Below, piece after piece: positions 140-22,547 of a DNA stretch of 22,547 nt. How positions within the stretch are numbered: position 1 is the stretch's first letter; every line of letters starts with the position of its first letter. Below the pieces are notes generated by a model, which saw only the letters and a program-made list of their open reading frames with translations, was not told where the DNA came from and searched no databases. The stretch is from a virus (taxonomy: Duplodnaviria > Heunggongvirae > Uroviricota > Caudoviricetes). The DNA lies in IMG/VR virus record IMGVR_UViG_2648501787_000004, positions 1 to 22,547 of that record; one strand, written 5' to 3'. The position numbers and the translations under genes were made by a program.

Positions 140-3100
140 TCAACTGATACTGATACCTGCTGTTGATTTCTTCATCACCACAACCAGTAAATCGCTGATA
201 CTTGCTGTGGGATACCAGCCATTTACCAGCCATGCTGACACAGAAAATTCCAGCGTCATGTGACCGTGACCGGCAGGCATATCAATAACGCCACTGTAAA
301 TCAGCGTATTATCCAGCGCAGTACGGTTATAAATTTCAGCACCGTTTTTCCGCACTATCAGACGGCATGAGGAGTAAATATCAGTATGATTTCGCTCATG
401 CTTAGCGCCGCTGAATGCCACCGCCGGAATAACAATCTGTCGGTCAAACGGCTGATCGTCATAAATCCTGACGGTAATGGTCCCTGATGGCCACCGTTCC
501 GGTGCTCGGGAGTCCCGGGGGAAAGCTTTACCCACTGTTTTAACGAGATCGCCTTCAATCTGGTTCGCGGACAGTTTTCCCAGAACCCGGCAGTTCTTGT
601 TAATCGTGACGTTGTTGAGCGTCCCGGCGTTCGCATTCACGTTACCGCTGATATCCGCATTTCTCGCCGTCAGTCGCCCGTCCGGTGTCAGGGAAAATGC
701 CGGAGGATTGCCACCACTGGTAATGGTGGGGGCCGTCAGGCGTTTCAGGAACACGTCATTCATGAATATCTGATCACCCTGCGCCACAAACATCGGCGTT
801 TCATTTCCGTTTGCCGGGTCAATAAACGCGATACGGTTAGCGGCAACCAGGAACTGGCTCAGTTTACCTTCCTCCGTGTCCTCCATGCTGAGGCCAATAC
901 CCGCGACATAATGTTTGCCGTCTTTGGTCTGCTCAATTTTGACGCCCCACATGGCATTCCATTTATCGTTGGCATCTTTCCACTCTTTCGAAAACTCCTC
1001 CAGTTTGCTGGCGTTATCCTCCGTCAACTCGACTTTTTCCAGCAGCTCTTTACCGAGATGGGATTCGGTTATCTGGCCTTTGAAAAAATCCAGGTAACCT
1101 TCGGCATCATCGCTCGCCCGACCGACAGCCTCCACAAATGCCGATTTGCCAACGGTGTTCACACTGCGGATGTAAAAATAATAATCATGGCCCGGTTTGA
1201 TATTGATACTGGCAGCTATCCAGTACAGCGCCGTGCCAAGATAGCGGGCTGTAGTTTCAACCTGCCTGATATCCGCAATCCGCTTTTCCGAGAACCAGAA
1301 CTCAAACTGTACCGTCGGATCATAAACGGCAAGATGGGGCGTGGCGGTTATCTGAAAATAGCCCGGCGTCAGCTCAATCCGCGACGGCGCTGCCGGTGCG
1401 GCAATCCGGAACGATACCGATGCAGGATCGCCCTGCTGCCCCCAGGCATTTGCCGCCCGGACTGTCAGCCTGTAGCTTCCCAGCGCCAGCTGCCTGAAGC
1501 GGTATGTGGTTTCCGTCGTCCGGGCCGTGCTGACCAGCCGCTCACTGCCGTCATCCGCTGCCACGGTCAGGCGAAGCATAAAGCTCACACCCTTCACCAC
1601 CTTCGGCGTATCCCAGCGCGCCAGCACCTGATATTCCCCGCTGTCTGCGGTGACTTCTGCGGTCAGGTGCTGCACCGCTGGCGGCGTGACACCATTCACC
1701 GTGCCACTCTGTTCGCCGTCAAAGTGCGCCCCGTTATCCACGATGGCCTCTTTTTCCGGCACATGCTGCACGGCGGTGATGGCATACGTGCCGTCGTCGT
1801 TCTCACGGATACTCACGCAGCGGAACAGTCGCTGGCGCAGCGTCGGCAGCTTCAGCCCCCATACGCTGTATTCAGCAACACCGTCAGGAACACGGCTCAC
1901 TTTTACCTTCACGCCGTCGGTGACGGACTGAACCTCCACGCTGACCGGATTGCCACTTCCGTCAACCAGGCTTATCAGCGTGGTACCGGAGGATGGCAGC
2001 GTGATTTCACGGTCGAGCGTCAGCGTCCGGGTCTGGCTGTTCACCGCCAGCACACGACCACCGATGCTGATACCGGCATAGTCATCATCACAGATTTCAA
2101 TAACATCGCCCGGCACATGGCGAAGCCCTTCTGCGCCCACGCTGAAATCCACGGTCTGCGTTTCCAGCAGTTCCGTTTTAATCAGCCACAGCCCGGCGCG
2201 GTGTGCCTGCCCCCGACTGGTACAACCAAAGGCATCCATCTTCGTGACATTACGACCGTAACGGGCAATGGCCTGCGTATCCTCAACAAGCTCTGTCGCC
2301 GTCTCCCAGCCGTTATCCGGGTCAATCCAGTTCACCTCAACGGCATTATGGCGATCCTTCAGGGCGCTGAAACTGTAGCGGAACGGCGCGCCATCATCCG
2401 GCATCACCACATTACTGCGGTTATAGGTCCACACCTTATCCGATGGCCGGTCCTGCACGAACGTCAGCGTCTGCCCGTTCCATACCGGCATACAGCGCAT
2501 CGCCGAACAGAAATCACTGAGCACATCCCACGCCTTGCGCTGTGTGGTCAGCCAGGCATTACAGGTGATGCGCGGCTCCGTGCTGCCAAAGCCGTCCGGC
2601 ACCGACTGGTCGCAGTAGTGGCCGATAACATACAGCGCCCATTTATCCACATCTGCCGCACCAAGACGTTTCCCCATGCCGTAGCGCGGGTGGGTCAGCA
2701 TATCCCACAGACACCAGGCCATGTTGTTGCTGTATGCCGGTTTAAACGTTCCGTCCCAGATACCGCTGTATTGCCGCGTCTGCGGGTTATAATTCGACGG
2801 CACCTGCAGAATACGCCCGCGCAGATGATAATTACGGCTCACCTGCTGGCTGCCGAACTGCTCCGAGTCCACCTGCACGCCGACCAGTGCCGTGTTCGGG
2901 TAGCACTGTTTCACATCGATGATTTCGGTGTATGACGACCAGAGCGTTTTGTTCTGCAGCTGGTCTGTGGTGCTGTCCGGCGTCATCCTGCGCATCCGGA
3001 TATTGAACGGGCGCGGAGGCAGGTTATCCACCACCACCGAGGCCAGATACTGCGAGGTGGTTTTGCCCTTAATGGTGATGTCTTTTTCCGTCACCCAGCC

Positions 3101-3529
3101 ACGCTGTATCTGAACCAGCAGGCGAACTTCCGACGGACTCCTGTCTCCCTTTGAGGTGGTTTCCACCAGTGCCTGTACACCGAAGGTAAAGCGCAGACGG
3201 TCGATGTTTGCCGACGTGATGGTGCGGGTGATCGGCGTGTCATATTTCACTTCCGTACCCAGCACCGTCTCGGAGCCGGAGGATTCAAACCCCTCCGGCG
3301 GAGTCTGCTCCTGCTCACCTGCCCGGAACACCACCGTGACACCGGAGATGTTGGTATTCCCCTCACTGTCCAGCACCGGCGTACTGTTCAGCAGCACGCT
3401 TTTTAAGCCATCCACCGGACCTTCAATCGGCCCTTCGCTGATGGCATCAATCACACTCAGCAACTGCGTGGACTTCAGGTTGTCCTTCGCTTCGCGCGGG
3501 GTATGCCCCTTACTGCTGCCTTTACCCAT
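140..3529 (-). CDS. J: Tail tip / host specificity protein J (central tail fibre)
   Basis: 1129-aa ORF, same size class as lambda J (~1130 aa); position after I in the lambda order; C-terminal region recognisably lambda-J-like by recall; ATG preceded by GAGGAA. Confidence 0.93.
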
Positions 3530-3551
3530 TCCTCACGCTCCATAAACGACA

Positions 3552-3571
3552 AAACCGCCCGCAGGCGGTTT
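3552..3571. promoter_or_regulatory. Conserved hairpin in the I-J intergenic region (AAACCGCC-cgca-GGCGGTTT)
   Basis: Perfect 8-bp inverted repeat with 4-nt loop; identical copy at 18395-18414. On the minus strand it is followed by a moderately T-rich tract, so it could act as an attenuator or RNA stability element; function not established. Confidence 0.3.
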
Positions 3572-3589
3572 CACATAAAACATTTTGCA

Positions 3590-4237
3590 TCAGCGACCAA
3601 TCACCACAACCTGACCACCGTCCCCTTCGTCTGCCGTGCTGATCTCCTGAGAAACCACCCGCGACCCCACACGCATTTCACCGTACAGAACAGGCAAAAC
3701 ATTGCCCTGAGCAACCATGTTATCCAGTGAGGAGAAATAGGTGTTCTGTTTGCCGTTATCTGTACTGGCTGCCGTGGGCGTCCTGGCTTTCGGTGCCAGC
3801 ATCTGCGCCACACCGCCCAGGATCATACTGGCCCCTGCCGCATACATGCCCGATACAGCCGCGGCACCCAGCCAGCCCACAGGGTTCCACCATGCCACCG
3901 CAATCAACGCCGCCCCCAGCACCACCTGAAATACACCGCCACTTTTAGCTCCCGCCAGACGCGGCACGATATGGATCACGGCACCATTTGCCAGCGGCTC
4001 ATTAAGACGGGCAGATAATTCGGTTTCACCTGCATCACGCCCGGCAATGCGCACCTGATACCAGCCGTCATTCAGCTTCTGACGAAACGCCGGGAGCTGT
4101 GTGGCCAGCGCCCGGATGGCTTCGGCCCCCGTTTTCACACGAAGGTCGATGCGGCGGCCAAATCGTTGCAAATCCCCGTAAAGGCAGATGCGTGCCATGC
4201 CCGGTGACGCCAGAGGGAGTGTGTGCGTCGCTGCCAT
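3590..4237 (-). CDS. I: Tail assembly protein I
   Basis: 215-aa ORF; N terminus MAATHTLPLASPGMARICLYGDLQRFGRRIDL... and C terminus ...NGKQNTYFSSLDNMVAQGNVLPVLYGEMRVGSRVVSQEISTADEGDGGQVVVIGR match my recollection of lambda I; overlaps the 3' end of K as in lambda. Confidence 0.9.
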   Translation of the reverse strand: MAATHTLPLASPGMARICLYGDLQRFGRRIDLRVKTGAEAIRALATQLPAFRQKLNDGWYQVRIAGRDAGETELSARLNEPLANGAVIHIVPRLAGAKSGGVFQVVLGAALIAVAWWNPVGWLGAAAVSGMYAAGASMILGGVAQMLAPKARTPTAASTDNGKQNTYFSSLDNMVAQGNVLPVLYGEMRVGSRVVSQEISTADEGDGGQVVVIGR

Positions 4238-4878
4238 TTGTCGGTATACCTCTCTCGTTTGCTCAGTTGTTCAGGAATATGGTGCAGCAGCTCGCCGTCA
4301 CCACAGTAAATGGCGGCATGATTCGGCACCGATGAACCAAAACAGCACAGCAGCACATCGCCCGGCTGCGCCGCTGACAACGGCACCTGATACAGCCTTG
4401 TGGCCTCCAGATTATCCAGATAGAGATTCTGACCGTGACGCCACCAGTCATCCCCGCGATGAAAATCCGGCATCTCAATCCCCGCCAGATGATAAGCATC
4501 CCGGAACAGCGTGTAACAGTCCGTCACCCCGTGCTCAAAGCGACGCCCGGTAAGATGCGGCACACAGCGGAATTTATGAATCTCACCCCGGCAGACCAGC
4601 CACCAAGGCAAATCGCTCTGCACCTGCAGCCGCCTGTCAGCCTCACTCAGCCAGGGCAGACCACCGGGGTGGCTGTGGACCAGCGCCACAATCTCACCCT
4701 GCATCTCTGCCCGCAGCCAGTCCTCCGGCGACATACGGAAATACGCCTCCGGTTCACCGGAGATATTCACGCAGGGAAAATATCTTTCCCCCTCCGGCGT
4801 TCTCACCACGAAGCCGCACGACTCCGCTGGCGCACATCGCCGGGCGTGCGCCAGAATCGCTGATTCTGTCTGTGTCAT
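4135..4878 (-). CDS. K: Tail assembly protein K (JAB/MPN plus NlpC/P60-type domains)
   Basis: Track ORF 4135-4953; the product probably starts at the internal Met (MTQTESAILAHARRCAPAESCGFVV..., ATG at 4878-4876) as in lambda K; the HSHPGG motif is typical of the MPN/JAB metalloprotease fold. Sits between L and I. Confidence 0.85.
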   Translation of the reverse strand: MTQTESAILAHARRCAPAESCGFVVRTPEGERYFPCVNISGEPEAYFRMSPEDWLRAEMQGEIVALVHSHPGGLPWLSEADRRLQVQSDLPWWLVCRGEIHKFRCVPHLTGRRFEHGVTDCYTLFRDAYHLAGIEMPDFHRGDDWWRHGQNLYLDNLEATRLYQVPLSAAQPGDVLLCCFGSSVPNHAAIYCGDGELLHHIPEQLSKRERYTDKWQRRTHSLWRHRAWHASAFTGICNDLAAASTFV

Positions 4879-9741: not shown

Positions 9742-10485
9742 TTAACCTGCGGCGCTGACAGTCACCGTAGCCACTGCCACAAAATCGCCGTCAGAAGTCA
9801 TGCCCACAATGCTGACACTGCCCTGCTTCACGCCTTTCACCGTGGCCACAAGCCCGTTCAGGGTCACCGTGGCAGTCTGTGGATCTGTCGAATGCACACT
9901 GATCGCTTTGTCACTGGCTCCGTCAGGTTTTACTGTAAAGGTCAGCGTGGTGGTTGCTCCCACATTGACACTGGCGGATGCCGGTGCCACCGTCAGCCCG
10001 GTAACGCCCACAGTTTGAGTGCCCTCCTCTGCCAGATATGGACGCCCCACACCGCTGATTTTCACGGTGCGGGTCATCACGTCTTTTGAGGCAATGGTTT
10101 TACCCAGTGAACTCAGCCAGCCACGGAAAACATCAACAGTGCCGTTGGGATATTTGATACGAAACGCGCAGACTTCACCGGAGTCGAACAACTGAACCAG
10201 TTTTTTCTGCCCGCTGTCACCCGGACGCCAGGCCAGCGTCGCCGAAGTATCACCGACGGATTTCTGCCCCTGGGTTGTCGTTTTCCAGTCTGCATCTTCA
10301 TCATCGAGATAAGTGTCATCTTCTGCATCAGCGGTCATTTCGCCAGGTTGCAGATCCTTCACCATCGCAAGACGCAGCCAGTCAGTGTCCGACAGAGGAT
10401 TCGCAAACGCATCGCCGTTGCCGGTATACATCCAGAACGTCGTCCCCGCACCTTTCGTCTTTGCCAGTGGATTTGGTGTGGTCAT
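9742..10485 (-). CDS. V: Major tail tube protein V with C-terminal Ig-like (Big_2-type) domain
   Basis: Track ORF 9742-10560; the probable start is MTTPNPLAKTKGAGTTFW (ATG 10485-10483) with AAGGAGG upstream (revcomp of 10491-10497); strong lambda V similarity (KGAGTT.W.Y.G.GD..ANPLSD.DW.RLA.VKDL.PGE...DDEDADW...GQGQKS.GDTS.TLAW.PG..G...NGTVDVFRGW.SS.GK). Confidence 0.9.
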   Translation of the reverse strand: MTTPNPLAKTKGAGTTFWMYTGNGDAFANPLSDTDWLRLAMVKDLQPGEMTADAEDDTYLDDEDADWKTTTQGQKSVGDTSATLAWRPGDSGQKKLVQLFDSGEVCAFRIKYPNGTVDVFRGWLSSLGKTIASKDVMTRTVKISGVGRPYLAEEGTQTVGVTGLTVAPASASVNVGATTTLTFTVKPDGASDKAISVHSTDPQTATVTLNGLVATVKGVKQGSVSIVGMTSDGDFVAVATVTVSAAG

Positions 10486-12173: not shown

Positions 12174-14132
12174 TTACGCCGTACATTTCACCAGACCGCG
12201 GTGATCAACTGGCGCGACACCGGCGTCAATACGCACTTTCGTTGTCACGCCATCCACACTGAAGCCCTCCATCTGATCAATATATGGCGTATCCACACCG
12301 TTGAGATAAGCCACTTCAATCGTATCGGAGCCTTTTGACGCAGCCAGGTAGAAGGTGGTCTGGCTGTTATCATCAAGACGAGGCTCTGCAATAACGGTCG
12401 CAAAATCTTTCACCGGGTTAATAATACCGGCGTTAATGTCAGCCCCCTTGACACTTGAGGAGCGAATGACCTGGTTAGCAACAGACTCCATCGCCGTCGG
12501 TACCAGTACGAACGCAGGACGAATATTCAGATGACGCTCCCCCTCTTTCTGAACGCGCATCAACTGGCGGGCTTTATCCAGCGATGCCACGTCCATTGCA
12601 GCGCTCTCCAGTACGTTTGCATGTTTCGCTTTATCGAACAGACTTACATTATCTGTGGAGATTTTCGGGTTAGACGTCAGAATGGCATAAACCAGATCGG
12701 CAATAGTGGATTTCGCCGCACGGCCCAGCTTCATCGGGACATCGGTCAGCATATTCAGATCATCATTGATAATGGCCTGACGGGTGATACTGAACAGCTC
12801 GCCATAGGTCGCCAGTGCAATAGTGGCCTGTTTATCTCCGGTGGTGACGTATTTATATTCCGCCCCTTCACGCACCTGACGCAGAGCACTGAAGCCCCCC
12901 ATACCCACACGATGGGCAATTTTAAAATCAGACAACTGACCTTTCCGCGTCCACTGTTCATAGGTTTCAGGGGCATCTTCCCAGCCCTGCAGAATGGCTT
13001 TGTTCGCAACATCCAGCAGAATATTACCGAAGTCAGACGTACTGTGTGTGAACGCCGCACCGACCATCTGCATCGGGTTATAACTGGAAATCCCAATACC
13101 CCGTTCAGTCAGTGACATACGGGCATATTCACGCAGGGTCATCCCGTTGTAGACATTATCACGTTCGGTTTTTTCAAATCCGGCACGCGCCATCAGCGCC
13201 TGGCGAATCCCGTCCCCCACAAAATTACCGTTACCGGCATAAATATGAGCCGGGGTATTTTTATTGGATGGCGTGGACTCGCGCCCCATCTCGTTCAACA
13301 GCTTTTCGCGGGCCTGCTCCAGCGAACATTCAGGATCGGCAAGACACTGAGCCTGCAGCGTCTGATAACGCCCGCCAAACATGGCAAACAGATCATTAAT
13401 ACCGTTTACACGCGCTTTTTGCTCTGCCAGTACCTGCGCACGGATGCTGTTTTCATCCACCACGGGTGCTGCTGCCTGCACTGGCGTCCGGGAGGCTGCA
13501 GGTTCATCATCCTGTACGCGTGGAGCACTGTTGCGTGGCGGAGTAATCATGTTTCGAATGGATTCCGGCATCTTTTTAAATTCCTCTGTACGTTTTGACT
13601 GAATACATGCCATTGCCTTAACGGCTGGCGTCACCTGATCAGCAAATCCATGTGCCAGACATTCGGCACCGGACATCCAGGTCTCATCCGCCAGCATGGC
13701 AGCAATTTCATCGGTGGTTTTCCCGGTTTTCTGTGCATAAGCGGGTAACAGAACCGCCTCAACCTTATCGAGCAGGTCGGCATAGGTGCGCATGTCCTCC
13801 GCATCACCGCCCGTAAAGCCAAATGGTTTATGAATCATCATGAAGGTGTTTTCCGGCATAATGACCGGGTTTCCCACCATCGCAATGACCGACGCCATTG
13901 ACGCCGCCACACCGTCGACATAAACGGTAATGGACGCACCATGTGTTTTCAGTGCATTAAAAATGGCGATGCCTTCAAAGACATCGCCACCCGGTGAATT
14001 GATATGGAGATTAATGTGGGTGATATCGCCCAGTGCATTCAGATCACTGATAAACTGCTTCGCTGTAACACCCCAGAAACCAATCTCGTCATAAATATAA
14101 ATATCCGCGTCACTCTGGTGACCAGCCTGCAT
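12174..14132 (-). CDS. Prohead protease / scaffold / major capsid fusion protein (copy 1)
   Basis: Track ORF 12174-14393 extends into the portal gene; the likely start is MQAGHQSDADIYIYDEIG (ATG 14132-14130), 14 nt after the portal stop. N-terminal ClpP/S49-like protease region (HINLHINSPGGDVFEG...VDGVAASMASV), C-terminal region with capsid-like character; ~652 aa. Confidence 0.85.
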   Translation of the reverse strand: MQAGHQSDADIYIYDEIGFWGVTAKQFISDLNALGDITHINLHINSPGGDVFEGIAIFNALKTHGASITVYVDGVAASMASVIAMVGNPVIMPENTFMMIHKPFGFTGGDAEDMRTYADLLDKVEAVLLPAYAQKTGKTTDEIAAMLADETWMSGAECLAHGFADQVTPAVKAMACIQSKRTEEFKKMPESIRNMITPPRNSAPRVQDDEPAASRTPVQAAAPVVDENSIRAQVLAEQKARVNGINDLFAMFGGRYQTLQAQCLADPECSLEQAREKLLNEMGRESTPSNKNTPAHIYAGNGNFVGDGIRQALMARAGFEKTERDNVYNGMTLREYARMSLTERGIGISSYNPMQMVGAAFTHSTSDFGNILLDVANKAILQGWEDAPETYEQWTRKGQLSDFKIAHRVGMGGFSALRQVREGAEYKYVTTGDKQATIALATYGELFSITRQAIINDDLNMLTDVPMKLGRAAKSTIADLVYAILTSNPKISTDNVSLFDKAKHANVLESAAMDVASLDKARQLMRVQKEGERHLNIRPAFVLVPTAMESVANQVIRSSSVKGADINAGIINPVKDFATVIAEPRLDDNSQTTFYLAASKGSDTIEVAYLNGVDTPYIDQMEGFSVDGVTTKVRIDAGVAPVDHRGLVKCTA

Positions 14133-14145
14133 CCTGAACCAGGAA

Positions 14146-15654
14146 TTATTCTTCGGACTGGTCGTCGGTGTGCTGCGGCTCCTGTCGTTTCGTTGCGGCA
14201 CTGCTGCCTCCTTTATCACTGGCCGGATCGGTATCAAATACCAGATCCAGCTTGCGGTTTTCATCAATTTCGGCCTTGCGCCGACGTTTGACATCATCCG
14301 GATTACGACCACCAGCACGTACCCAGTCTGATTCTGTCGCCGCTCCACCACGAATCTGGATTTTCCAGGCCTCAGCCTCCTTAACAGGGTCAATCCACGG
14401 CATCACCGGTCCGGAATACACCGCGGTATACAGTGAAGAACGGTCAAGATCGCGGGGTAGCCTGATAACACCGGATGCCACAGCCTGTTTCAGCCAGGCA
14501 CGATACATCGGGCGGGTGACGGCACCAATAAACCAGTCCTGCAGGATCAGGTAGCCATCTGTGGATTCAACCAGCTCCTGACGCTGGGCGCTGTAAGTGC
14601 CGTTATAGTTGCGTGCCGTACTGGAAAAACTCAGACGACTGCCCGCCGCCACGGCACGCAACTGACCATTACGAAAAGTTTCAAGGTTAGGATTGGGACG
14701 ATCCGACTTCACCATTCCGATTTCTTCGCCGGGTTTCAGATCGTCGTAAATAATGCCTGGCTGAATGGTAAGCTCGCGTTCATTCTCCTTGCTGCCATTA
14801 CCATCCGGTTCATAGCTCTGCCCGTCGCCTTTCCGGATGTACATCCCCAGAGCAGCGGCGACCCTTGCTGCAGTCAGCTCAGAATCTTCATACTCTTTCA
14901 GGGCACTGAGGCGGATCAGCACACCGGACAACAAAGACGTCCCGCGCATCTGGTGCAGACGGCGAACAAATTTAAGATGCAGCATTCGCTCTGCATCCAC
15001 TTCTTTGGTTTCCATCTGCCGCCAGGATACGGGACGACTTTTATACACCAGATATTTTTCGGGACGCCCCCAGTCATCAACAAACACGCCCTGATTCAGC
15101 CTGTTGCTCTCATCACTGGTCATGGGAATAAAGTCTGGCTCGAGCGCCTCCAGCCAGAAATGAACACCGGCAGAAGGCGTCAGGTTGTTTATGCGCCCGG
15201 AAACCATCTGGGCAAACACCTCACCATCGCGCAGCCAGGTACGCAACATCAGACGTTCCAGCATCGGACGGGTAAACTGCCCGGTGACTTCCGGGCTGAC
15301 AGACCATTCACTCCATCGGGTGCGTATCTCCGCTGCCAGATCACGGGCAATGGCCCCATTGCGTAATACCGGATGTGGCTCGACAATAATCCCGTTTTTC
15401 CCCACCACCCGTTCTTCCAGCTTGTCAAATACACCAATAACCAGATCGTGGTTGTTATCAAGGTAACGGGCCTGCTCACGTAACGACACGGCCCCGTACT
15501 GGCTTAACTGGTCGGCAGTTCGGTTTTCCCGCCGGGCTTTGTGTGTCCGCGTCGTTTTTACGGCCTCATAAGCCTGGATCACCGCACGGGAACGCAGCCT
15601 TGCCGCTTTCCATCCTGGTGAAAAAACGCCAATCACATCATCAAGAATTGCCAT
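14146..15654 (-). CDS. Portal protein
   Basis: Track ORF 14146-15726; the likely start is MAILDDVIGVF at ATG 15654-15652, overlapping the W stop by 1 nt (TGATG); ~500 aa, acidic C-terminal tail; position between W and the capsid gene. Confidence 0.85.
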   Translation of the reverse strand: MAILDDVIGVFSPGWKAARLRSRAVIQAYEAVKTTRTHKARRENRTADQLSQYGAVSLREQARYLDNNHDLVIGVFDKLEERVVGKNGIIVEPHPVLRNGAIARDLAAEIRTRWSEWSVSPEVTGQFTRPMLERLMLRTWLRDGEVFAQMVSGRINNLTPSAGVHFWLEALEPDFIPMTSDESNRLNQGVFVDDWGRPEKYLVYKSRPVSWRQMETKEVDAERMLHLKFVRRLHQMRGTSLLSGVLIRLSALKEYEDSELTAARVAAALGMYIRKGDGQSYEPDGNGSKENERELTIQPGIIYDDLKPGEEIGMVKSDRPNPNLETFRNGQLRAVAAGSRLSFSSTARNYNGTYSAQRQELVESTDGYLILQDWFIGAVTRPMYRAWLKQAVASGVIRLPRDLDRSSLYTAVYSGPVMPWIDPVKEAEAWKIQIRGGAATESDWVRAGGRNPDDVKRRRKAEIDENRKLDLVFDTDPASDKGGSSAATKRQEPQHTDDQSEE

Positions 15655-15872
15655 CAGAACCTCGCCAGCCGGTACCCGGGATGCCCCCGTCGTCGTGTAA
15701 TCAGAGCCGCAAGGCGGCGCTCCCACTCCTGCCGTCCCTGCCGGATCTCAGATAAGTTTTCCATGGTCATCTGCTGACCATTAAAGGTGACGGATTTTCC
15801 GTCCAGCACCGCCATTTCAGCTTCCGTATAACGCTGAATCATGGCTTCGATATCATTCTGGTTCATAACCAT
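15654..15872 (-). CDS. W: Head-tail joining / head completion protein, gpW-like
   Basis: 72 aa (or 70 from Met3); C-terminal RRRGHPGY resembles the lambda W C terminus (RRRGPAGFYV); placed between terminase large subunit and portal as in lambda. Confidence 0.6.
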   Translation of the reverse strand: MVMNQNDIEAMIQRYTEAEMAVLDGKSVTFNGQQMTMENLSEIRQGRQEWERRLAALITRRRGHPGYRLARF

Positions 15873-16975
15873 CCTCCGGAAGTCAGCCAGGGGTTAACAT
15901 CGTCAGTTACTGTTTTCTTCCGTTTTTGTTTTTTAACAGGCGTGGATACCGGTTCCGGTGAGGGTGACGGTTTGGTACTGTCCGGGACACACTCCAGCCA
16001 GGTTTCCCGGCTCGCCCATTCCGGTGCATCCGGCCAGCGGATCTTTTCGTATCCATGCAGAATGACCAGAGCCTCGGCATACACCATCAGGTCAAAAGCT
16101 TCGTTGGCACCGCGACCCGGCTTACTCCATTTCCCGTCACTGCTCCGCTCTTCATACGTCAGTTCGTCGTAAAACCAGCTCCCCAGCCAGTCAGGGAAAT
16201 GCACATAGCCGGGACCTGGAGAGTCACGCCATAACGCGTTATTCACCCGGTCTTTCAGGGCATCCGTCTGAAGAAGCCAGAGCGGCACATCACCTGCGGC
16301 CTGCGCCCGTCGGCCCGTTCGTCCGGTGTTATCAGGGAATGTACGGGTGATCAGTTTTGCGCGCCGGATGCTGTCGCCCTTAAACAAGTAAATACGTTTA
16401 CCAAGGCCATCACGACGGCAACGACGCCAGAATTTATAGGCATTATCAGTGACCCCGTCTTCACCGCCGGAATCCACCGCCATTGCCATCAGTCGCATTT
16501 GTTGAGAAGGATCGGAGGCCAGCGGCCAGCTTTTATGAAAAACATCCGTCAGCAGGACATCCCAGTCTTCCGGATAGCTGGCCGGATCAATTCGCTGGCT
16601 CTCCCCGTCGCTGTCACCGCGCAATGACTGCGTGATGTTGTAACGATCAATAATCCAGCGTTCGCCACGGCTGCCATAGCCCGTTACCTGAACCACAAAA
16701 CGGCGATGACGTCCCGCCTGCACATCAACTGTCGCCACCAGGAAATTAACGCCATCCGGCACACTGCGGGAAGGAACTGGCTCTGCCCGCTGCTCAAGCA
16801 GTTCACTTTTTCGTTGCTCCATGCTGGCACGGGGAAGATAAGGTAATCCCCAGTCGGTATTGATAACCGTCTTGAGTGTTTCTTCACTTCCGGTTGTCTC
16901 GTATTCCTGTTCTGCAGTAAGCAGTTTGTAAACGAGTTGCGAGAGTGTCTGGTAAGCAGCTGCCGGACCCTCCAT
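15863..16975 (-). pseudogene. A: Terminase large subunit, C-terminal (nuclease) domain only; N-terminal ATPase domain absent
   Basis: 370-aa ORF resembling roughly the C-terminal half of lambda gpA (e.g. VATVDVQ..., WDSKKRRNEALDCFVYA-like region ...GANEAFDLMVYAEAL). Upstream in frame there are only 11 unrelated codons before a stop (17009-17011), and the sequence above 16980 is AT-rich non-coding DNA. Confidence 0.75.
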
Positions 16976-16979
16976 CCAG

Positions 16980-17440
16980 GAAGAAGTAAATAAAAGGTAA
17001 CTAAATGATTATAAGGTACTATTGAGTTATGCCCCCTACAACATAGTCCCAGATTTAGTACCTGCTTAAGCGATAAAAAAGCCAAAAAGGAAGCAATATT
17101 AATTATTGCCGCTATGCATGATCACAATGACAAATCAGAGGCGGAATTCCGCTCTCGGAACTCACATATGAGAAACGATATTTCTTCCACCGATACCCTT
17201 TATTTGGGTATCGCGAGTAAGCCCCAAAATCTGGGTGTTACTCTTACTACCCAAACTACGGGTAGTTTCCGTAGTTTCATAGTCGAGTTGCAGATCTGCA
17301 ACTCGCCACCAGTTGCTAAGTGCATTTTTGCACTTTCGATAATATCAACCAGTTACCGCCGTAAGTGCTCCGGCTTCCTCCACTGGTAAGTATTTTTCGC
17401 GCTCTCCCTCCGTTGTTGAGAACGGCGACGGTATGCCAGC
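16980..17440. other. AT-rich, palindrome-rich non-coding segment replacing the middle of the terminase large subunit gene
   Basis: Visibly AT-rich compared with flanking genes; contains the perfect 12-bp palindrome GCGGAATTCCGC (17141-17152), hairpin CGATACCC-n7-GGGTATCG (17191-17213), inverted repeat AAACTACGG-n7-CCGTAGTTT (~17252-17276) and a perfect 20-bp palindrome GAGTTGCAGATCTGCAACTC (17285-17304). No ORF with recognisable similarity. Confidence 0.6.
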
Positions 17441-17640
17441 AACTCAAGAACTCTGGTTCGTATGTTGCGCATATCAACGCCGTTAAGCTCAATACCGTCA
17501 CGGCGCATCACCTCAGCCACCACACGCGCGTAATTTTCAGCGGTGACTGTATCCGGCTGCGCGGCCTGTTCGTCAGCCAACTGGCTGATTCCACCAGCAC
17601 AGCGGATTAATCGCAGTATTTCAGATTCGGTCATTATCAT
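17353..17640 (-). pseudogene. Short ORF translationally coupled to the small terminase gene; probably the N-terminal remnant of the large terminase gene
   Basis: Its ATG overlaps the Nu1-like stop by 4 nt (17637-17640), the position where the large terminase gene normally starts; the last ~30 codons are Arg/Gln-rich and run into the AT-rich segment, suggesting read-through into non-native sequence. Homology to the gpA N terminus is weak. Confidence 0.35.
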
Positions 17641-18122
17641 GCCTGTTTTGCGACCTCATTCACTACGTCATTTTTTACCATCCGGCTGATAATCTGATTA
17701 CGCAAATCGTCAATAATTGACTGCACTCTGTTTACTGCCATCGGTTTAAGCCCGGCATCACGTGCCAGAATATTGGGGAGTTTTGCCAGTTCCTCGCTTA
17801 CGATTTCCCCCCATATAGCCATCTCTTTTCGCACATCATCGGCGGGTATGAGTTGCGCCGTTTCCTGTTCGAACTTGAGGCGCTCACGTTCGGACTGATA
17901 CCAGGCCTTACGGTCATGTGGCTCCATTTCTTCCAGTGATGCCGGAACGGGAAGATCAAGAAAACAGGTCAGAATGTCAGTCACCCGATAGAGTTTTAGC
18001 TTGTCATGCCCTCCGGCTGGCTGGATGTTTTTCAGCCTTGCCGCCGCAGTCTGACGACATATTCCCGCTATCGCCGCCAGTTGATTAATGTTCAGCATCA
18101 GATTTTTCAGTTCTCGATCCAT
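17637..18122 (-). CDS. Terminase small subunit, Nu1-like
   Basis: Track ORF 17637-18209; the likely start is MDRELKNLMLNINQLAAIAGICRQTAAARL (ATG 18122-18120, GGAG 7 nt upstream). N-terminal helix-turn-helix followed by a charged coiled region (ERERLKFEQETAQL), laid out like lambda Nu1; first gene after a cos-like region. Confidence 0.65.
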   Translation of the reverse strand: MDRELKNLMLNINQLAAIAGICRQTAAARLKNIQPAGGHDKLKLYRVTDILTCFLDLPVPASLEEMEPHDRKAWYQSERERLKFEQETAQLIPADDVRKEMAIWGEIVSEELAKLPNILARDAGLKPMAVNRVQSIIDDLRNQIISRMVKNDVVNEVAKQA

Positions 18123-18289
18123 ACCCGCTCCAGAATGTTTTAAACATGCATCTTGCGAACAACTTTCAGAAGAGGTCAAAAAATGCGCTATATGTTGAGC
18201 ATAAAACAAGCAAAATTAACATGCCAAAAATAAAAACACTTAAAATTCAATATCATAGAAAGATGATGATGACGAATGAAAATGCAAAA
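18123..18289. promoter_or_regulatory. cosB-like AT-rich region with repeated TGCAT-containing motifs between the cos candidate and the small terminase start
   Basis: Minus strand: ...tttttGCATtttcattcgtcat...tttttggCATGttaattttgcttgttttatgc...caagaTGCATGtttaaaac...; contains TTCGTCAT and TGTTTTTATTT, which I recall from lambda cosB. Possible terminase small subunit or IHF binding sites. Confidence 0.35.
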
Positions 18290-18370
18290 ACTAGCCTTTT
18301 TCCGCGCCGCTCCCGCCTCGCGGCAGGCCACCTCACCGGGAGGACCCACCCAAAAAAGGCGACTGTCACT
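18290..18370. promoter_or_regulatory. Candidate cos site (cosQ/cosN-like GC-rich element)
   Basis: Minus strand reads GGGTCCTCCCGGTGAGGTGGCCTGCCGCGAGGCGGGAGCGGCGCGG; the GGGTCCT..CCGGTGA stretch resembles my recollection of the lambda right-end flank (GGGTCCTTTCCGGTGATCC), and the element sits ~170-250 bp upstream of the Nu1-like start. The exact nick positions cannot be assigned. Confidence 0.4.
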
Positions 18371-18432
18371 ATTGTTTATGCTCCATGAGCGACAAAACCG
18401 CCCGCAGGCGGTTTCACATAAAACATTTTGCA

Positions 18433-19074
18433 TCAGCGACCAATCACCACAACCTGACCACCGTCACCTTCGTCTGCCGTGCTGATCTCCTGAGAAACCA
18501 CCCGCGACCCCACACGCATTTCACCGTACAGAACAGGCACAACATTGCCCTGGGCAACCATGTTATCCAGAGAGGAGAAATAGGTGTTCTGCTTACCGTT
18601 ATCCGTGGTGCTGGCTGTTGCTGTGCTGGCTTTCGGTGCCAGCATCTGTGCAACACCACCAAGTGTCATCGCCGCCCCCATTGAAAAGAGAATGTCACTG
18701 AAAGCGATACTGATTCCTGGCATCCAGATTGCCGTAGCAATCAGCGCCGCACCAAGCACCGCCTGAAACACGCCGCCACTTTTGGCACCAGCCAGACGCG
18801 GTACGATGTGGATCACGGCACCATTTTCCAGCGGTTCATTAAGACGGGCTGATAATTCGTTTTCGCCTGTATCACGCCCGGCAATACGCACCTGATACCA
18901 ACCATCGCTCAGTTTCTGACGAAACGCTGGGATCTGCATGGCCAGCGCCCGGATGGCTTCGGCCCCCGTTTTCACATGAAGATCGATGCGGCGGCCAAAT
19001 CGTTGTAAATCCCCGTAAAGGCAGATGCGTGCCATGCCCGGTGACGCCAGAGGGAGTGTGTGCGTCGCTGCCAT
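18433..19074 (-). CDS. I: Tail assembly protein I, second copy (mosaic allele)
   Basis: 213 aa; the N-terminal ~110 aa and C-terminal ~70 aa are almost identical to the I protein at 3590-4237, while the central hydrophobic segment differs (IATAIWMPGISIAFSDILFSMGAAMT versus IAVAWWNPVGWLGAAAVSGMYAAGASMI). Confidence 0.85.
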   Translation of the reverse strand: MAATHTLPLASPGMARICLYGDLQRFGRRIDLHVKTGAEAIRALAMQIPAFRQKLSDGWYQVRIAGRDTGENELSARLNEPLENGAVIHIVPRLAGAKSGGVFQAVLGAALIATAIWMPGISIAFSDILFSMGAAMTLGGVAQMLAPKASTATASTTDNGKQNTYFSSLDNMVAQGNVVPVLYGEMRVGSRVVSQEISTADEGDGGQVVVIGR

Positions 19075-19133
19075 TTGTCGGTATACCTCTCTCGTTTGCT
19101 CAGTTGTTCAGGAATATGGTGCGGCAGCTCGCC
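18972..19133 (-). pseudogene. 3'-terminal remnant of a K gene (truncated at the duplication boundary)
   Basis: The sequence upstream of I copy 2 matches the K/I overlap of copy 1 only up to ~19133, after which it diverges; no K-like N-terminal coding sequence follows. Lower boundary inferred by offset from copy 1. Confidence 0.45.
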
Positions 19134-19163
19134 GCCCCACGTGTTCAAAGTACCGCCTTGTTG

Positions 19164-21077
19164 TCATGCTCCATTCGATTTCAGCAATCCACGATAATCG
19201 AGGGCCGCGACACCTGCATCTATGCGCACCTTCCAGGCGACACCATCAACAGTAAAGCCCACCTGCTCCTCAAGATATGGCGTATCCATACCATCAAGAT
19301 AAGCGACTTCTATTGTGTCCATCCCCTTAGCTGCGGCTACATACCATTCCTTGCTATTGGCCTTATCAAGACGTGGCTCAACAATTACTTCTGCCATATC
19401 TTTCACAACGTTAATGATGCCGGGGTTCTGATTGATAGTGCCCTCATCACCAACCGGAAAGACTGATGACGATGACAGAATGGCGCGACGCGCGGCAGAT
19501 TCCAGCGCGGCAGGGACCAGAACAAAAGCAGGGGTAATATTCAGTGAGTCGCCGTTAGCATCCTCCTGGAGGCGCATCAGCTTACGGGCTTCATCAAGCC
19601 CCACCATGTCCATATCCTTCGCAATAAGATTTTTATGATCGGCATGGAATAACGCTTTACCATCCGTAAACTTGCCGTTGCTGGTTAACAGGAGATAAAC
19701 CAGATTGCCAACTGTTCTGGCGGCTGCGCGTCCCATTGCCATGGGGATTGTAGTTAACTGGGTCAGGTCATCGTTGATAATGGCCTGACGGGTAACGGAA
19801 AAAATATTCCCGTACGTGGCCAGCGCAATAGGTACACCTTTATCGCTGGTGGTGATGTATTTATATTCCGCACCTTCCGGTACTTTATCCAGCTTTGAAA
19901 AACCATTCAGACCAACGCGCTTTGCTTCATGAAAGTTTGAAAGCGAACCGGTACGCGTCCATTTCTGGAACGTTTCGCCGCTGTCCTGCCAGCCTTTCAG
20001 TACAGATTTTTCAGCCCCACCAGCCAGAATATGAGAAAAATCACTGCTGCTGTGTGTAAAAGCCGCATTAACAACCTGCGAGCGATTAATAAAACCACTC
20101 ACAGTGATACCACGATCAACCAGTGATGCCTGGGCCATTTCAAAAAGGCTCATCATCGCGTAAGGGTTGCCTCGTTCAGGGCGTTCATACCCAAGACGGG
20201 AATAAAGCCCCTGACGAATTGCATCACCTGTTATGTTTCCGTTTCCGGCATAGATATGAGGCGGGGTATTTTTATTGGATGGCGTGGACTCGCGCCCCAG
20301 CTCGTTCAACAGCTTTTCACGGGCCATTTCCGGTGTACATGATGCATCTTCCAGACACGCCATTTTGATCCCGTCGTAACGACTGCCGAACAGGCTAAAC
20401 ACTTCACTTATTCCATTGATGCGTTTCTGTTCATTACCAGCAATATTTGCCGCTCCCTGTGGCGGTGTAATCATTCCTTTAATGGTTTCCGGCATATGTA
20501 AAAAATCTCCTGTGCGCTTCGATTCAATTCGCGCCATTGCTCTGACGGATGGCAACAATTCATCAGCAAAACCGTGCTTAAGGCATTCTTTCCCGTCCAT
20601 CCAGGTTTCATCTTCCAGCATGGCGGTAATTTCCTGTGCTGATTTGCCCGTTTTTCTGGCATAAGCAGGGACTAACACGGTTTCCACCTTATCCAGCAAA
20701 TCAGCATAATCACGCATATCACCAGCATTTCCGCCAGAGATACCCCACGGCTTATGTATCATCATCATGGCGTTTTCCGGCATCACAACACGATCGCCAG
20801 CCATTGCGACCACCGAAGCCATTGAAGCCGCAACACCATCGATATAAACCGTAATGTCTGCCGGATGATTCCGTAGCAGGTTATAGATGGCGATGCCTTC
20901 AAACACATCACCACCTGGTGAATGGATCCTCAGATTGATATGTGAAACATCGCCAAGGGCTTTCAGGTCTTCCGCGAACTGCTTTGCAGTAACACCGAAG
21001 CCGCCAATCTCCTCATAGATAGATATATCCGCCGCTCCGCGAACATCCGCCGCCTTAATGGTGTACCAGCGATTCAT
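19164..21077 (-). CDS. Prohead protease / scaffold / major capsid fusion protein (copy 2, divergent)
   Basis: 637 aa, colinear with copy 1 over its whole length but clearly diverged (by eye roughly 60-70% identity); same ClpP/S49-like motifs (HINLRIHSPGGDVFEG, VDGVAASMASV). ATG 21077-21075 with a G-rich RBS; ATGA overlap with the upstream small ORF. Confidence 0.85.
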   Translation of the reverse strand: MNRWYTIKAADVRGAADISIYEEIGGFGVTAKQFAEDLKALGDVSHINLRIHSPGGDVFEGIAIYNLLRNHPADITVYIDGVAASMASVVAMAGDRVVMPENAMMMIHKPWGISGGNAGDMRDYADLLDKVETVLVPAYARKTGKSAQEITAMLEDETWMDGKECLKHGFADELLPSVRAMARIESKRTGDFLHMPETIKGMITPPQGAANIAGNEQKRINGISEVFSLFGSRYDGIKMACLEDASCTPEMAREKLLNELGRESTPSNKNTPPHIYAGNGNITGDAIRQGLYSRLGYERPERGNPYAMMSLFEMAQASLVDRGITVSGFINRSQVVNAAFTHSSSDFSHILAGGAEKSVLKGWQDSGETFQKWTRTGSLSNFHEAKRVGLNGFSKLDKVPEGAEYKYITTSDKGVPIALATYGNIFSVTRQAIINDDLTQLTTIPMAMGRAAARTVGNLVYLLLTSNGKFTDGKALFHADHKNLIAKDMDMVGLDEARKLMRLQEDANGDSLNITPAFVLVPAALESAARRAILSSSSVFPVGDEGTINQNPGIINVVKDMAEVIVEPRLDKANSKEWYVAAAKGMDTIEVAYLDGMDTPYLEEQVGFTVDGVAWKVRIDAGVAALDYRGLLKSNGA

Positions 21078-21283
21078 TGTTCCCCCACCGATGCAAAACC
21101 ATTCTGATTAAGCCAGGTGTTTACGGCATGTCTGACAATCTGCGCCACACCTGGTAATGGTTGGTCAGGATGATGATTTATATGGTCGATCCTGTACTGC
21201 TTAAGGCGCATAACGGTCTGCGCATCCAGATGAACGGAACCACCTCTGGTATCACCTGTGTTCAGGTCATTAATACAACTCAC
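21074..21283 (-). CDS. Hypothetical small protein (69 aa), translationally coupled to capsid gene copy 2
   Basis: GTG start at 21283-21281 with GAGGAAG 6-7 nt upstream; stop overlaps the capsid-2 ATG (ATGA). No recognisable family from sequence alone. Confidence 0.45.
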   Translation of the reverse strand: MSCINDLNTGDTRGGSVHLDAQTVMRLKQYRIDHINHHPDQPLPGVAQIVRHAVNTWLNQNGFASVGEQ

Positions 21284-21385
21284 AGCAACTTCCTCTGACT
21301 GACTAAACTATGCACATTATTGATCGATAAAAGTGGTAAATAAACATATTTCTATCATAAAAACAGATTAATTAGATTCAGACAC

Positions 21386-21407
21386 AAAAAAGCCGGATTT
21401 CTCCGGC
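21386..21407 (-). terminator. Rho-independent terminator downstream of the primase gene and iteron array
   Basis: Minus strand: GCCGGA-gaaa-TCCGGC stem-loop (21392-21407) followed by TTTTTT (21386-21391). Confidence 0.65.
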
Positions 21408-21537
21408 TTCTGTCACTCGTTGCTTAAAACGGTATGTTATCCCCGTACGGATCATCATTCCCCGCCTGTTGTTTTGGTGTGCTTCGCTGTCATAGGCTTT
21501 ATCTCACAGCAGTAAATTAAAATTTTTGCGTTTTAAC

Positions 21538-21766
21538 CCTTCACCTGTTCACCTTTTGATATTTTCTCTATTAATTCATAATGTTAAGGGGTGAACAGTT
21601 TCAAAAAAACTATTCACCAACTGTTCACCACTGTTCACCCTTGAAGCTCAATAAACAATCAAAAAGGTGAACAGTGAATAGTTTGGTGAACAGTTCATAA
21701 ATAACTGCTCACCCTATAATATACTGATATAAAAGATATTTATGACAGGGTGAACAGTGGTGAACA
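21538..21766. repeat. Iteron array of TGTTCACC octamers in both orientations (P4 ori/crr-type)
   Basis: Perfect TGTTCACC at 21546-21553, 21622-21629 and 21632-21639; perfect reverse-orientation GGTGAACA at 21590-21597, 21666-21673, 21685-21692, 21749-21756 and 21759-21766; one-mismatch variants at 21611-21618, 21674-21681 and 21706-21713. Embedded in AT-rich DNA directly downstream of the primase stop. Confidence 0.75.
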
Positions 21767-21780
21767 GTTATTCCATAAGT

Positions 21781-22547
21781 TTAATTTTTGCTATCGTCAT
21801 TAGTGACCGATACACATGATGGCATCCAGTCTTCTGATTCCTCCGTCAGTGTCACGTTTGAACGCAAACCGTGCTTCGTTTTCCGTTTCATATACTCCCT
21901 GCCATATTCCGCCATTGCCCCCGGCATATCTTTACCGAAGCGCGTCAGTGTTACAGGTTTACCAAACCCATGTGCCCTCATATAAGCCAGATAGGCATGA
22001 TAGAGATACCTGCGTGGGCTGAATGGCACAATTTCAGCATTACCCACTAACAGGCCATCACACATTACCGACGCCATGAGATAGCCGCAGAAGTCCACCA
22101 GCGAATCCCCCTCTCGCTTTATCGCCAGTGCTTCTTCAGATTTCTGCTGCTCATATAACAGGCGTCTGGCTTCGTCCTGGTTAGCAAACCGTGTAAGCAG
22201 ATGGCGAATCACTACCGCCAGCTCACCTTCTATTTTTTCCGCCAGCATTGGATCACGTTCGTTCTCCGGTACAACTTCCGAAAAATTGAATATCACCCGA
22301 CGACGTGAGATCCCCCCGCTGCGGTCACTGAATGACATGGCGTTATTGTTAACCGCCAGCACTACTGCCGGAATACGCGTTGAGTAGGGGGCTTTGTGTT
22401 TCGGGTCAATTGCCACCTTGTCACCGCCTGTAATAGCCTTAATCCCTGCTCCATCACCAGCGTAGCGGGTCATATCCGGCATGATAATCAGCGAAAAGCC
22501 AACCACTAACGCGCGTTCCCTTGCATCTTCCAGCGCCTTCATGCTTG
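21781..22547 (-). CDS. Phage/plasmid primase, P4 family, C-terminal region (partial; 5' end outside the window)
   Basis: Open frame from the window edge to the stop at 21781; contains ITGGDKVAI...RRRVIFNFSEVVPENERD...IEGELAVVIRHLL, which matches my recollection of the conserved C-terminal region of P4 alpha-type primases (D5_N/primase_Cterm). Direct adjacency to TGTTCACC iterons supports this. Confidence 0.7.
   Translation of the reverse strand, partial: SMKALEDARERALVVGFSLIIMPDMTRYAGDGAGIKAITGGDKVAIDPKHKAPYSTRIPAVVLAVNNNAMSFSDRSGGISRRRVIFNFSEVVPENERDPMLAEKIEGELAVVIRHLLTRFANQDEARRLLYEQQKSEEALAIKREGDSLVDFCGYLMASVMCDGLLVGNAEIVPFSPRRYLYHAYLAYMRAHGFGKPVTLTRFGKDMPGAMAEYGREYMKRKTKHGLRSNVTLTEESEDWMPSCVSVTNDDSKN

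Follow-up and report, generated by a model that had tools for sequence, protein, structure and literature searches.

A lambdoid prophage and the satellite nested in its terminase gene carry tail tip I alleles that differ in a central hydrophobic block

The stretch of DNA analyzed here (the window, 22,547 nt in length) contains two open reading frames of the I family, copy 1 (215 amino acids) and copy 2 (213 amino acids), both on the minus strand. Both matched Pfam family PF06805 at residues 14 to 97 (86.8 and 82.3 bits, for a cut-off of 23.8), and a full-length alignment of both was obtained to the lambda gpI chains in the PDB (8iyk_I, E=3e-104). In each of them, the sequence PRLAGAKSGG at residues 92 to 101 provides the glycines closing the Ub-like domain and is followed, according to the 8iyk_I alignment and to hydropathy, by a hydrophobic H1-H2 segment and then by the conserved plug and beta-strand C-domain. 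Copy 1 lies within a normal lambdoid tail operon (H-M-L-K-I-J), and the gene at the homologous position in strain C6 is annotated as "tail assembly protein." This placement between J and a K gene with JAB and NlpC/P60 domains is true of copy 1 but not of copy 2, which has a ClpP-protease/major-capsid fusion gene and a DNA primase gene on one side and a DUF1441 gene on the other (Pfam). All features are listed in Table 1.

Table 1. Positions of the I genes, their variable segments, and the surrounding features in the window
Feature	Position	Strand	Context	Evidence
J, tip attachment protein of helper	140..3529	-		Pfam J domains
I copy 1	3590..4237	-	Helper tail operon, between K and J	ORF; Pfam Lambda_tail_I, E=1e-24
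Copy 1 block, type W (AVAWWNPVGWLGAAAVSGMYAAGASMI)	3827..3899	-	H1 end, turn, and H2 start of gpI	Maximum chi-square; block typing
K of helper (JAB + NlpC/P60)	4135..4878	-	103-nt overlap with I	Pfam Prok-JAB and NLPC_P60; extent from homologous annotation
Helper terminase gene A, C-terminal (nuclease) half	15863..16984	-	Severed by satellite	Pfam GpA_nuclease; PGAP pseudogene "missing N-terminus"
att core (CTGGATGGAGGG)	16968..16979	-	Satellite/terminase junction	Comparison of attL, attR, and intact attB
Helper-embedded PICI, right part	16985..22547	-	Hypothetical, DUF1441, I cassette, ClpP/capsid, primase	Pfam
DUF1441	17637..18122	-		Pfam
I cassette, ~785 nt (K remnant + I + I-J spacer)	18385..19165	-	Between capsid gene and DUF1441	Alignment of satellites with and without I
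GC-rich hairpin AAACCGCCTGCGGGCGGTTT	18395..18414	-	Right after I stop; identical copy at 3552..3571	Exact matches; alignment
Gene-conversion tract, helper-type, ~100 nt	18415..18514	-	3' end of copy 2	Comparison with L001, L002, and L003
I copy 2	18433..19074	-	Satellite late zone	ORF; Pfam Lambda_tail_I, E=3e-23
Second variable patch, KASTATAST vs KARTPTAAS (residues ~150 to 158)	18606..18635	-	Copy 1 counterpart at 3763..3792	Sliding identity
Copy 2 block, type P2 (ATAIWMPGISIAFSDILFSMGAAMT)	18670..18736	-		Alignment
K 3' remnant, last ~54 codons, no N-terminus	18969..19130	-	Overlaps I start	tblastn to K residues 147 to 199
ClpP/capsid fusion	19164..21077	-		Pfam
Primase	21781..22542	-	Cut by window end	Pfam

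The original prediction described the two I genes as alleles. They are not alleles of two prophages: copy 2 lies in a PICI of the helper-embedded kind (HE-PICI) nested inside the very prophage that carries copy 1. Given the position of the att core at the junction with the terminase gene, the satellite spans positions ~16985 to the end of the window. In the complete Escherichia coli genomes A20, C6, and KSC64, the whole element (~10.4 kb in A20 and ~11.3 kb in C6 and KSC64; a related circular record has 10,790 bp) is located between the N- and C-terminal halves of the prophage terminase large-subunit gene. Comparison with intact terminase genes placed the insertion point at codon ~331, and attL, attR, and attB share the common core CTGGATG(G/T)AGGG. 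All genes of the element are on one strand, in the order integrase, HTH, BRO-N, Icd-like, DUF4222, primase, ClpP/capsid fusion, K remnant, I, DUF1441, and hypothetical; some satellite copies also carry SSB in the replication zone.

HE-PICIs are organized in an integrase/AlpA-like HTH zone, a Bro zone, a replication zone with the primase, and a late zone that is dynamic and captures helper late genes (PMC10111431). The element found here is similar to the HE-PICIs of Tommasini, Mageeney & Williams (2023, PMC10111431) in its size of ~10.4 to 11.3 kb, in its int, HTH, Bro-N, primase, and late zones, and in the presence of captured phage late genes in the last of these. Indeed, the four-zone layout is complete in A20, C6, and KSC64, the window holding the primase and late zones only, and the element falls within the 10- to 20-kb range of satellite sizes and is devoid of tail shaft and lysis genes. 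However, its target is a GpA-family terminase, entered at codon ~331, whereas the part of the PMC10111431 supplement considered here lists only A:Terminase_1:132 and :246. Neither the GpA-family site nor the core CTGGATG(G/T)AGGG was found in that part of the supplement or in the corresponding att alignments, and this terminase site may represent an unlisted HE-PICI integration site. An I cassette is likewise not discussed in the sections of PMC10111431 that were covered.

The satellite and its helper differ in their copies of the head genes too, since their ClpP/capsid fusions (that of the helper is encoded at 12174-14393, minus strand) share ~57% identity at the protein level; at the DNA level, identity reaches ~70 to 74% over patches. 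The DUF1441 protein of the satellite shares ~71% identity with the phage one, whose gene lies immediately upstream of terminase A, in the position of the small subunit, and this suggests that the satellite protein may act as a small-terminase-like packaging specificity factor. The circular record mentioned above, L001 (NZ_CP148328.1; 10,790 bp, deposited as a plasmid), has the same late zone as window positions 17112 to 22547, with capsid fusion, K remnant, I, and DUF1441, and its integrase is only 24% identical. L001 has the appearance of a satellite in excised or replicating form and is evidence that modules are shuffled from one satellite to another. In the helper prophage of A20 (L329), an additional hypothetical ORF of 339 nt is present between I and J (3303-3641), and a porin gene annotated as ompC (33668-34750) lies between the lysis-side genes and the Q antiterminator.

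Within the satellite, copy 2 forms part of a cassette that also includes the end of K and the I-J spacer. At the homologous position, the K remnant is annotated by PGAP as a pseudogene ("phage tail protein, missing N-terminus"). The ends of the cassette carry an imperfect repeat, GGAGCAT(G/A)ACAA, and because this bounding repeat resembles the phage sequence at the start of J, it suggests that the cassette may have been captured through microhomology. In each copy, the I stop codon is followed by the GC-rich hairpin AAACCGCCTGCGGGCGGTTT, which was taken up together with I. It was not flagged by a promoter/terminator scan of positions 16900 to 19400, in which hits were fewer than in shuffles, and Rfam gave no match in the window at gathering thresholds.

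A satellite-type DUF1441 was present at ≥96% identity in 36 loci. The cassette was present in 6 of these related loci, and in at least 24 of the 36 the capsid fusion gene is followed directly by DUF1441, with no I cassette. Among 5426 complete E. coli genomes, ~21 harbor the cassette with both satellite flanks, and 101 harbor most of the satellite segment. A scan of genome contigs with the satellite DUF1441 returned five loci, and the satellite was not among them. We found no discussion in the literature of I genes in satellites, only gene-profile entries in a supplement; in the part of the PMC10111431 supplement considered here, Lambda_tail_I appears at the late-zone end of capsid-forming-like HE-PICIs of Klebsiella. 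One viral record in which the capsid gene lies beside I (L032; IMG/VR, 37.6 kb) was considered as a cassette donor and rejected, its junction being different and the result of an unrelated 8.8-kb deletion. It is a prophage with 99% identity to the head region of the window and a defective relative, in which ~8.8 kb is missing between a point within the capsid fusion gene and one within K (junction at 9824-9826), and with it all tail shaft genes. Similarly, an apparent terminase-I fusion protein (P0006) was dismissed as a gene-calling artefact at a contig end, in a normal I-J-lom context.

The proteins encoded by copy 1 and copy 2 are 86% identical, with a 2-aa indel and with differences clustered at residues ~113 to 139. 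At the nucleotide level, homology between the two starts ~60 nt 5' of the ATG, in the 3' end of K (position 4296 for copy 1 and 19133 for copy 2), and ends ~45 nt beyond the stop codon, past the GC-rich hairpin and just before the start of J (~3545 and ~18388); outside these limits, the alignment showed that it is lost on both sides. Over the 752 homologous columns, 101 mismatches were counted. The central block accounted for 46 of them in 80 columns (43% identity), while the remaining 672 columns contained 55 (91.8% identity; Fisher p=4e-24). A two-breakpoint maximum chi-square analysis set the limits of the block at 3827 and 3899 in copy 1, with a score that was reached by 0 of 200 permutations; the equivalent in copy 2 is ~18670-18736, for a block size of 73 to 80 nt.

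This is in good agreement with the original prediction that the two genes would be alike at their ends and swapped in a central hydrophobic block, since divergence is concentrated there rather than evenly spread. Based on the mapped breakpoints, the predicted limits of the block (3814-3898 in copy 1 and 18650-18735 in copy 2) were right to within ~20 nt. The description of the rest of the gene as otherwise near-identical DNA stands in part: the block is sharp, but its flanks are 91.8% identical, the Ub-like N-domain is ~90% identical between the two copies, and a sliding-identity plot revealed a second small divergent patch. Furthermore, the gene ends are 97 to 99% identical between all I allele types, so that near-identity at the ends is not peculiar to the window pair.

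In lambda, a trimer of gpI in the tail tip plugs the tube, as seen by cryo-EM and mass spectrometry. The protein is ordered from residue 101 on in the closed tip; its plug (residues 159 to 175) and beta-strands dock in gpJ and hold the C-terminal coiled coil of gpH, and H1 and H2 are predicted transmembrane helices that are gone from the tip after LamB binding and for which insertion into the outer membrane has been proposed (PMC11101478, PMC10721106, PMC12617516). In TAPI proteins, one or several conserved glycines end the Ub-like domain, and cleavage at this site by the JAB domain of K has been predicted (Iyer, Burroughs & Aravind 2006, PMC1779556). The window copies resemble lambda gpI (PF06805; PDB 8IYK, 8IYL, 8K35, 8XCG, and 9E7M) in matching it end to end, in their Ub-like N-domain ending in AGAKSGG, in their two hydrophobic helices, and in a near-identical plug and beta-strand C-domain; additionally, copy 1 occupies the canonical K-I-J slot with the K/I overlap of 103 nt. 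Unlike lambda gpI, they have a hairpin that is 8 to 10 residues shorter and does not align with that of lambda at the DNA level, and copy 2 is housed in a satellite without K and J as neighbors. As for the TAPI/TAPK pair of Ub-like and JAB proteins, the K beside copy 1 has JAB and NlpC/P60 domains, whereas the satellite I has no K of its own and would rely on the helper K for a JAB cleavage that is itself a prediction.

Alignment to lambda gpI showed that the block corresponds to residues ~113 to 147 of the lambda protein, that is, the end of H1, the turn, and the first half of H2. This hairpin lies between the GG-ending Ub-like N-domain and the conserved LGGVAQMLAPK, plug, and beta-strand C-domain. 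We typed the segment from the Ub-domain GG to the conserved GGVAQML in 246 I genes from 240 viral contigs and reference loci, a biased and partly clonal sample made up of the best 80 matches that each of three queries gave in a single collection of viral contigs, together with additional copies from those loci. At least five discrete types were found in it, namely, LAM (47 residues, in an I protein of 223 aa), W (39 residues), and P1, P2, and P3 (37 residues each), with very low variation within types; copy 1 is of type W and copy 2 of type P2. Hydropathy is preserved in all block types (mean Kyte-Doolittle of 1.2 to 1.36, with 0 to 1 charged residues), and the C-terminal 55 residues are 98 to 100% identical among I types. 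Further block types and one P1/LAM hybrid kind were present among 120 database proteins. In P0025 and P0070, a P1-type first half of the hairpin is joined to a lambda-type second half (AVMAVAIWMPGVAIGTGGMTGILFSLGASMVL), indicating that recombination occurs inside the block as well.

Both blocks of the window are common. The W block was detected in 2120 of the 5426 E. coli genomes and also in phages mEp460, cdtI, Tritos, and Ayreon. The P2 block was detected in 336 of these genomes and, at megablast sensitivity, in 0 of 50,697 GenBank phage records. P2 is not specific to satellites, as ordinary M-L-K-I-J operons in 40-kb contigs (L004-L026) carry it, and so do classical lambda-like prophages. 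The second patch, which is located just before the plug, reassorts independently of the main block: the versions KASTA, KARTP, KPKTP, and KPQTP were all found with one block type, and KPRTP was also seen.

Between types, dS in the block exceeds 1.7 and is saturated (dN, 0.2 to 0.9), whereas dS ranges from 0.04 to 0.4 in the K-overlap, the Ub-domain, and the C-domain (dN ≤0.03), the exception being LAM, which differs also across the second half of the Ub-domain. A saturated block between flanks of low dS indicates that the blocks are old alleles moved by homologous recombination, and the same block types indeed occur in different backgrounds. The K/I overlap (4135-4237), in which 103 nt are read in different frames, shows ~99% DNA identity across all I allele types, and this dual-coding stretch is probably the upstream recombination anchor.

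Conversion is also visible within the satellites themselves. The tract at the 3' end of copy 2 departs at 14 sites from L001, L002, and L003, which are other satellite copies, and agrees with the helper copy 1 at 13 of these 14; two residues are changed, in both cases from I to V. From position 18515 to 19170, copy 2 is identical to L001, L002, and L003, and satellite I copies overall differ at only 0 to 2 sites outside the conversion tract. In the sister satellite L258, satellite-type flanks and a satellite-type 3' end enclose a lambda-type interior that is 30 nt longer. The initial proposal of a local replacement by gene conversion or module exchange is therefore supported by the dS contrast, by the sharing of blocks between different backgrounds, and by the conversions visible in copy 2 and in L258.

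Lambdoid phage genomes are known for their mosaic (modular) evolution by homologous and illegitimate recombination, as described in the literature of Hendrix, Hatfull, and Casjens. The I genes share with this mosaicism the sharp identity breakpoints, the old divergent segments in a homogenized background, and a reassortment that is independent of neighbors. They differ from it in that the module is intragenic and comprises ~25 to 35 codons rather than a whole gene or domain. Overall, we consider it quite probable that the window contains nested elements, in which copy 1 belongs to a lambdoid prophage as its I gene, copy 2 was captured by an HE-PICI residing in terminase A, and the hairpin is an exchanged standing polymorphism.

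Alternatively, the satellite I could be an adaptive gene, whose product, a gpI with a different hairpin built into helper tails, alters entry, evades exclusion, or poisons the helper tips. The ORF is intact and has its own ribosome-binding region in every examined cassette-bearing copy, and the cassette was found with two unrelated integrases. In addition, Lambda_tail_I is present in the gene profiles of unrelated Klebsiella HE-PICIs, in the part of the PMC10111431 supplement considered here. In 4 of 4 composites, the block type of the satellite is unlike that of the helper (W, W, W, and P3 versus P2), with the restriction that n=4 and that the elements are related. However, the cassette is limited to 6 of the 36 related satellites and includes a defunct piece of K, which would fit a capture in decay; its overwriting by phage I sequence is under way, the P2 block is a common phage allele, and the satellite copies are too alike to reveal purifying selection, as they show 0 to 2 differing sites outside the conversion tract. 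We therefore regard an adaptive role as unlikely. It also seems improbable that the hairpin types are functional specificity alleles under frequency-dependent selection, imposed by the envelope or by prophage entry-exclusion at the tip opening, with satellites carrying an alternative I. The discrete, conserved, and ancient classes and the difference in type between satellites and their helpers (4 of 4 cases) are compatible with such alleles and are no proof of them. If this were true, the particles of composite lysogens would have mixed or alternative hairpins, and the satellite would enter a wider range of cells.

The original prediction further suggested that the block might track a J or K variant. 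More generally, the hairpin could be co-adapted to an interacting partner (K, J, the C-terminal helix of gpH, gpL, or the receptor type) and be swapped together with it; indeed, lambda gpI contacts gpJ and the C-terminal coiled coil of gpH. We measured linkage as AMI on clustered windows, which is a crude measure. In an association scan over 6.1 kb, block type predicted the sequence only from ~4090 to ~3760, inside I, and I showed 97 to 99% identity between types over its first ~150 nt and its last ~200 nt. K, the ends of I, and the first 1.7 kb of J were 90 to 99% identical irrespective of block type (AMI of ~0 to 0.1). When the partners were taken separately, the AMI with block type was 0.01 to 0.04 for K and 0.02 to 0.05 for J residues 1 to 300, J residues 300 to 700, the fibre region, and the receptor-binding domain. 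The clusters of the J receptor-binding domain were independent of block type (AMI of 0.02, n=146). For L, the AMI was 0.01 at a clustering threshold of 85% and 0.26 at 95%. The survey thus contradicts tracking of a J or K variant, and co-adaptation is largely refuted for these two proteins; moreover, the segment of I that contacts gpJ, the C-domain, is invariant.

Higher values were obtained upstream, with an AMI of 0.26 to 0.32 for the H C-terminus and of 0.25 to 0.29 for M (about 0.25 to 0.38 for M and H taken together), and W and P1, but never LAM, occurred together with H C-termini that end in RLSGAYR. Nevertheless, the cross-table of H C-termini and I types is many-to-many, as one H C-terminus was found with all four I types and each type with several H C-termini, and the distant genes Z, U, and V associate with block type as strongly or more (AMI of 0.34 to 0.40). 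For these two reasons, we read the association with H and M as lineage background, and we regard co-adaptation as very unlikely. The diffuse association with the upstream tail genes is nonetheless real (AMI of ~0.3), and weak effects may exist in this biased and partly clonal sample. Finally, diversification of the hairpin in place by positive selection, without any exchange, is extremely improbable, for although the block dN is high and its dN/dS is above that of the flanks, its dS is saturated as well, the types are discrete and internally almost invariant, identical blocks occur in different backgrounds, and recombinants were observed.

Under the preferred reading, that of nested elements exchanging a standing polymorphism, the late zone of the satellite would have captured a phage I along with ~54 codons from the end of K and the I-J spacer. 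At least five anciently diverged hairpin types would circulate in the lambdoid phages of E. coli, and homologous recombination in the conserved flanks, that is, the first ~100 nt of I that are dual coding with K and the C-domain, would move them between backgrounds. Hydrophobicity might be all that the hairpin has to retain in order to serve in the tail tip as an element of the lumen or of membrane insertion. If hydrophobic-helix character is indeed all that is required, this would explain why very different hairpins are tolerated, persist, and are freely exchanged. Late transcription in a composite lysogen would cover both I alleles together, and the products of both could be processed by the helper K and built into helper tails. 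Both gpI proteins would be usable by the helper, as their GG site and C-domains are nearly identical and the satellite I is co-oriented with the helper late operon.

Taken together, these data describe ordinary lambdoid intragenic mosaicism combined with the capture of a late gene by a known kind of satellite, and the I-gene findings do not overturn current views. The reading of the window itself is corrected, from two prophages to a single prophage whose terminase gene houses a satellite; the second I allele is a late gene that was captured. The I genes provide a clean small-scale case of intragenic cassette exchange in a tail tip protein whose helices are thought to enter the outer membrane. 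At least five very different hairpins are evidently tolerated without matched changes in K, J, and H, which is useful for the engineering of lambda-like tails and for the interpretation of gpI structures. In addition, the satellite and its helper form a pair in which gene conversion continues, by way of a gene that they have in common.
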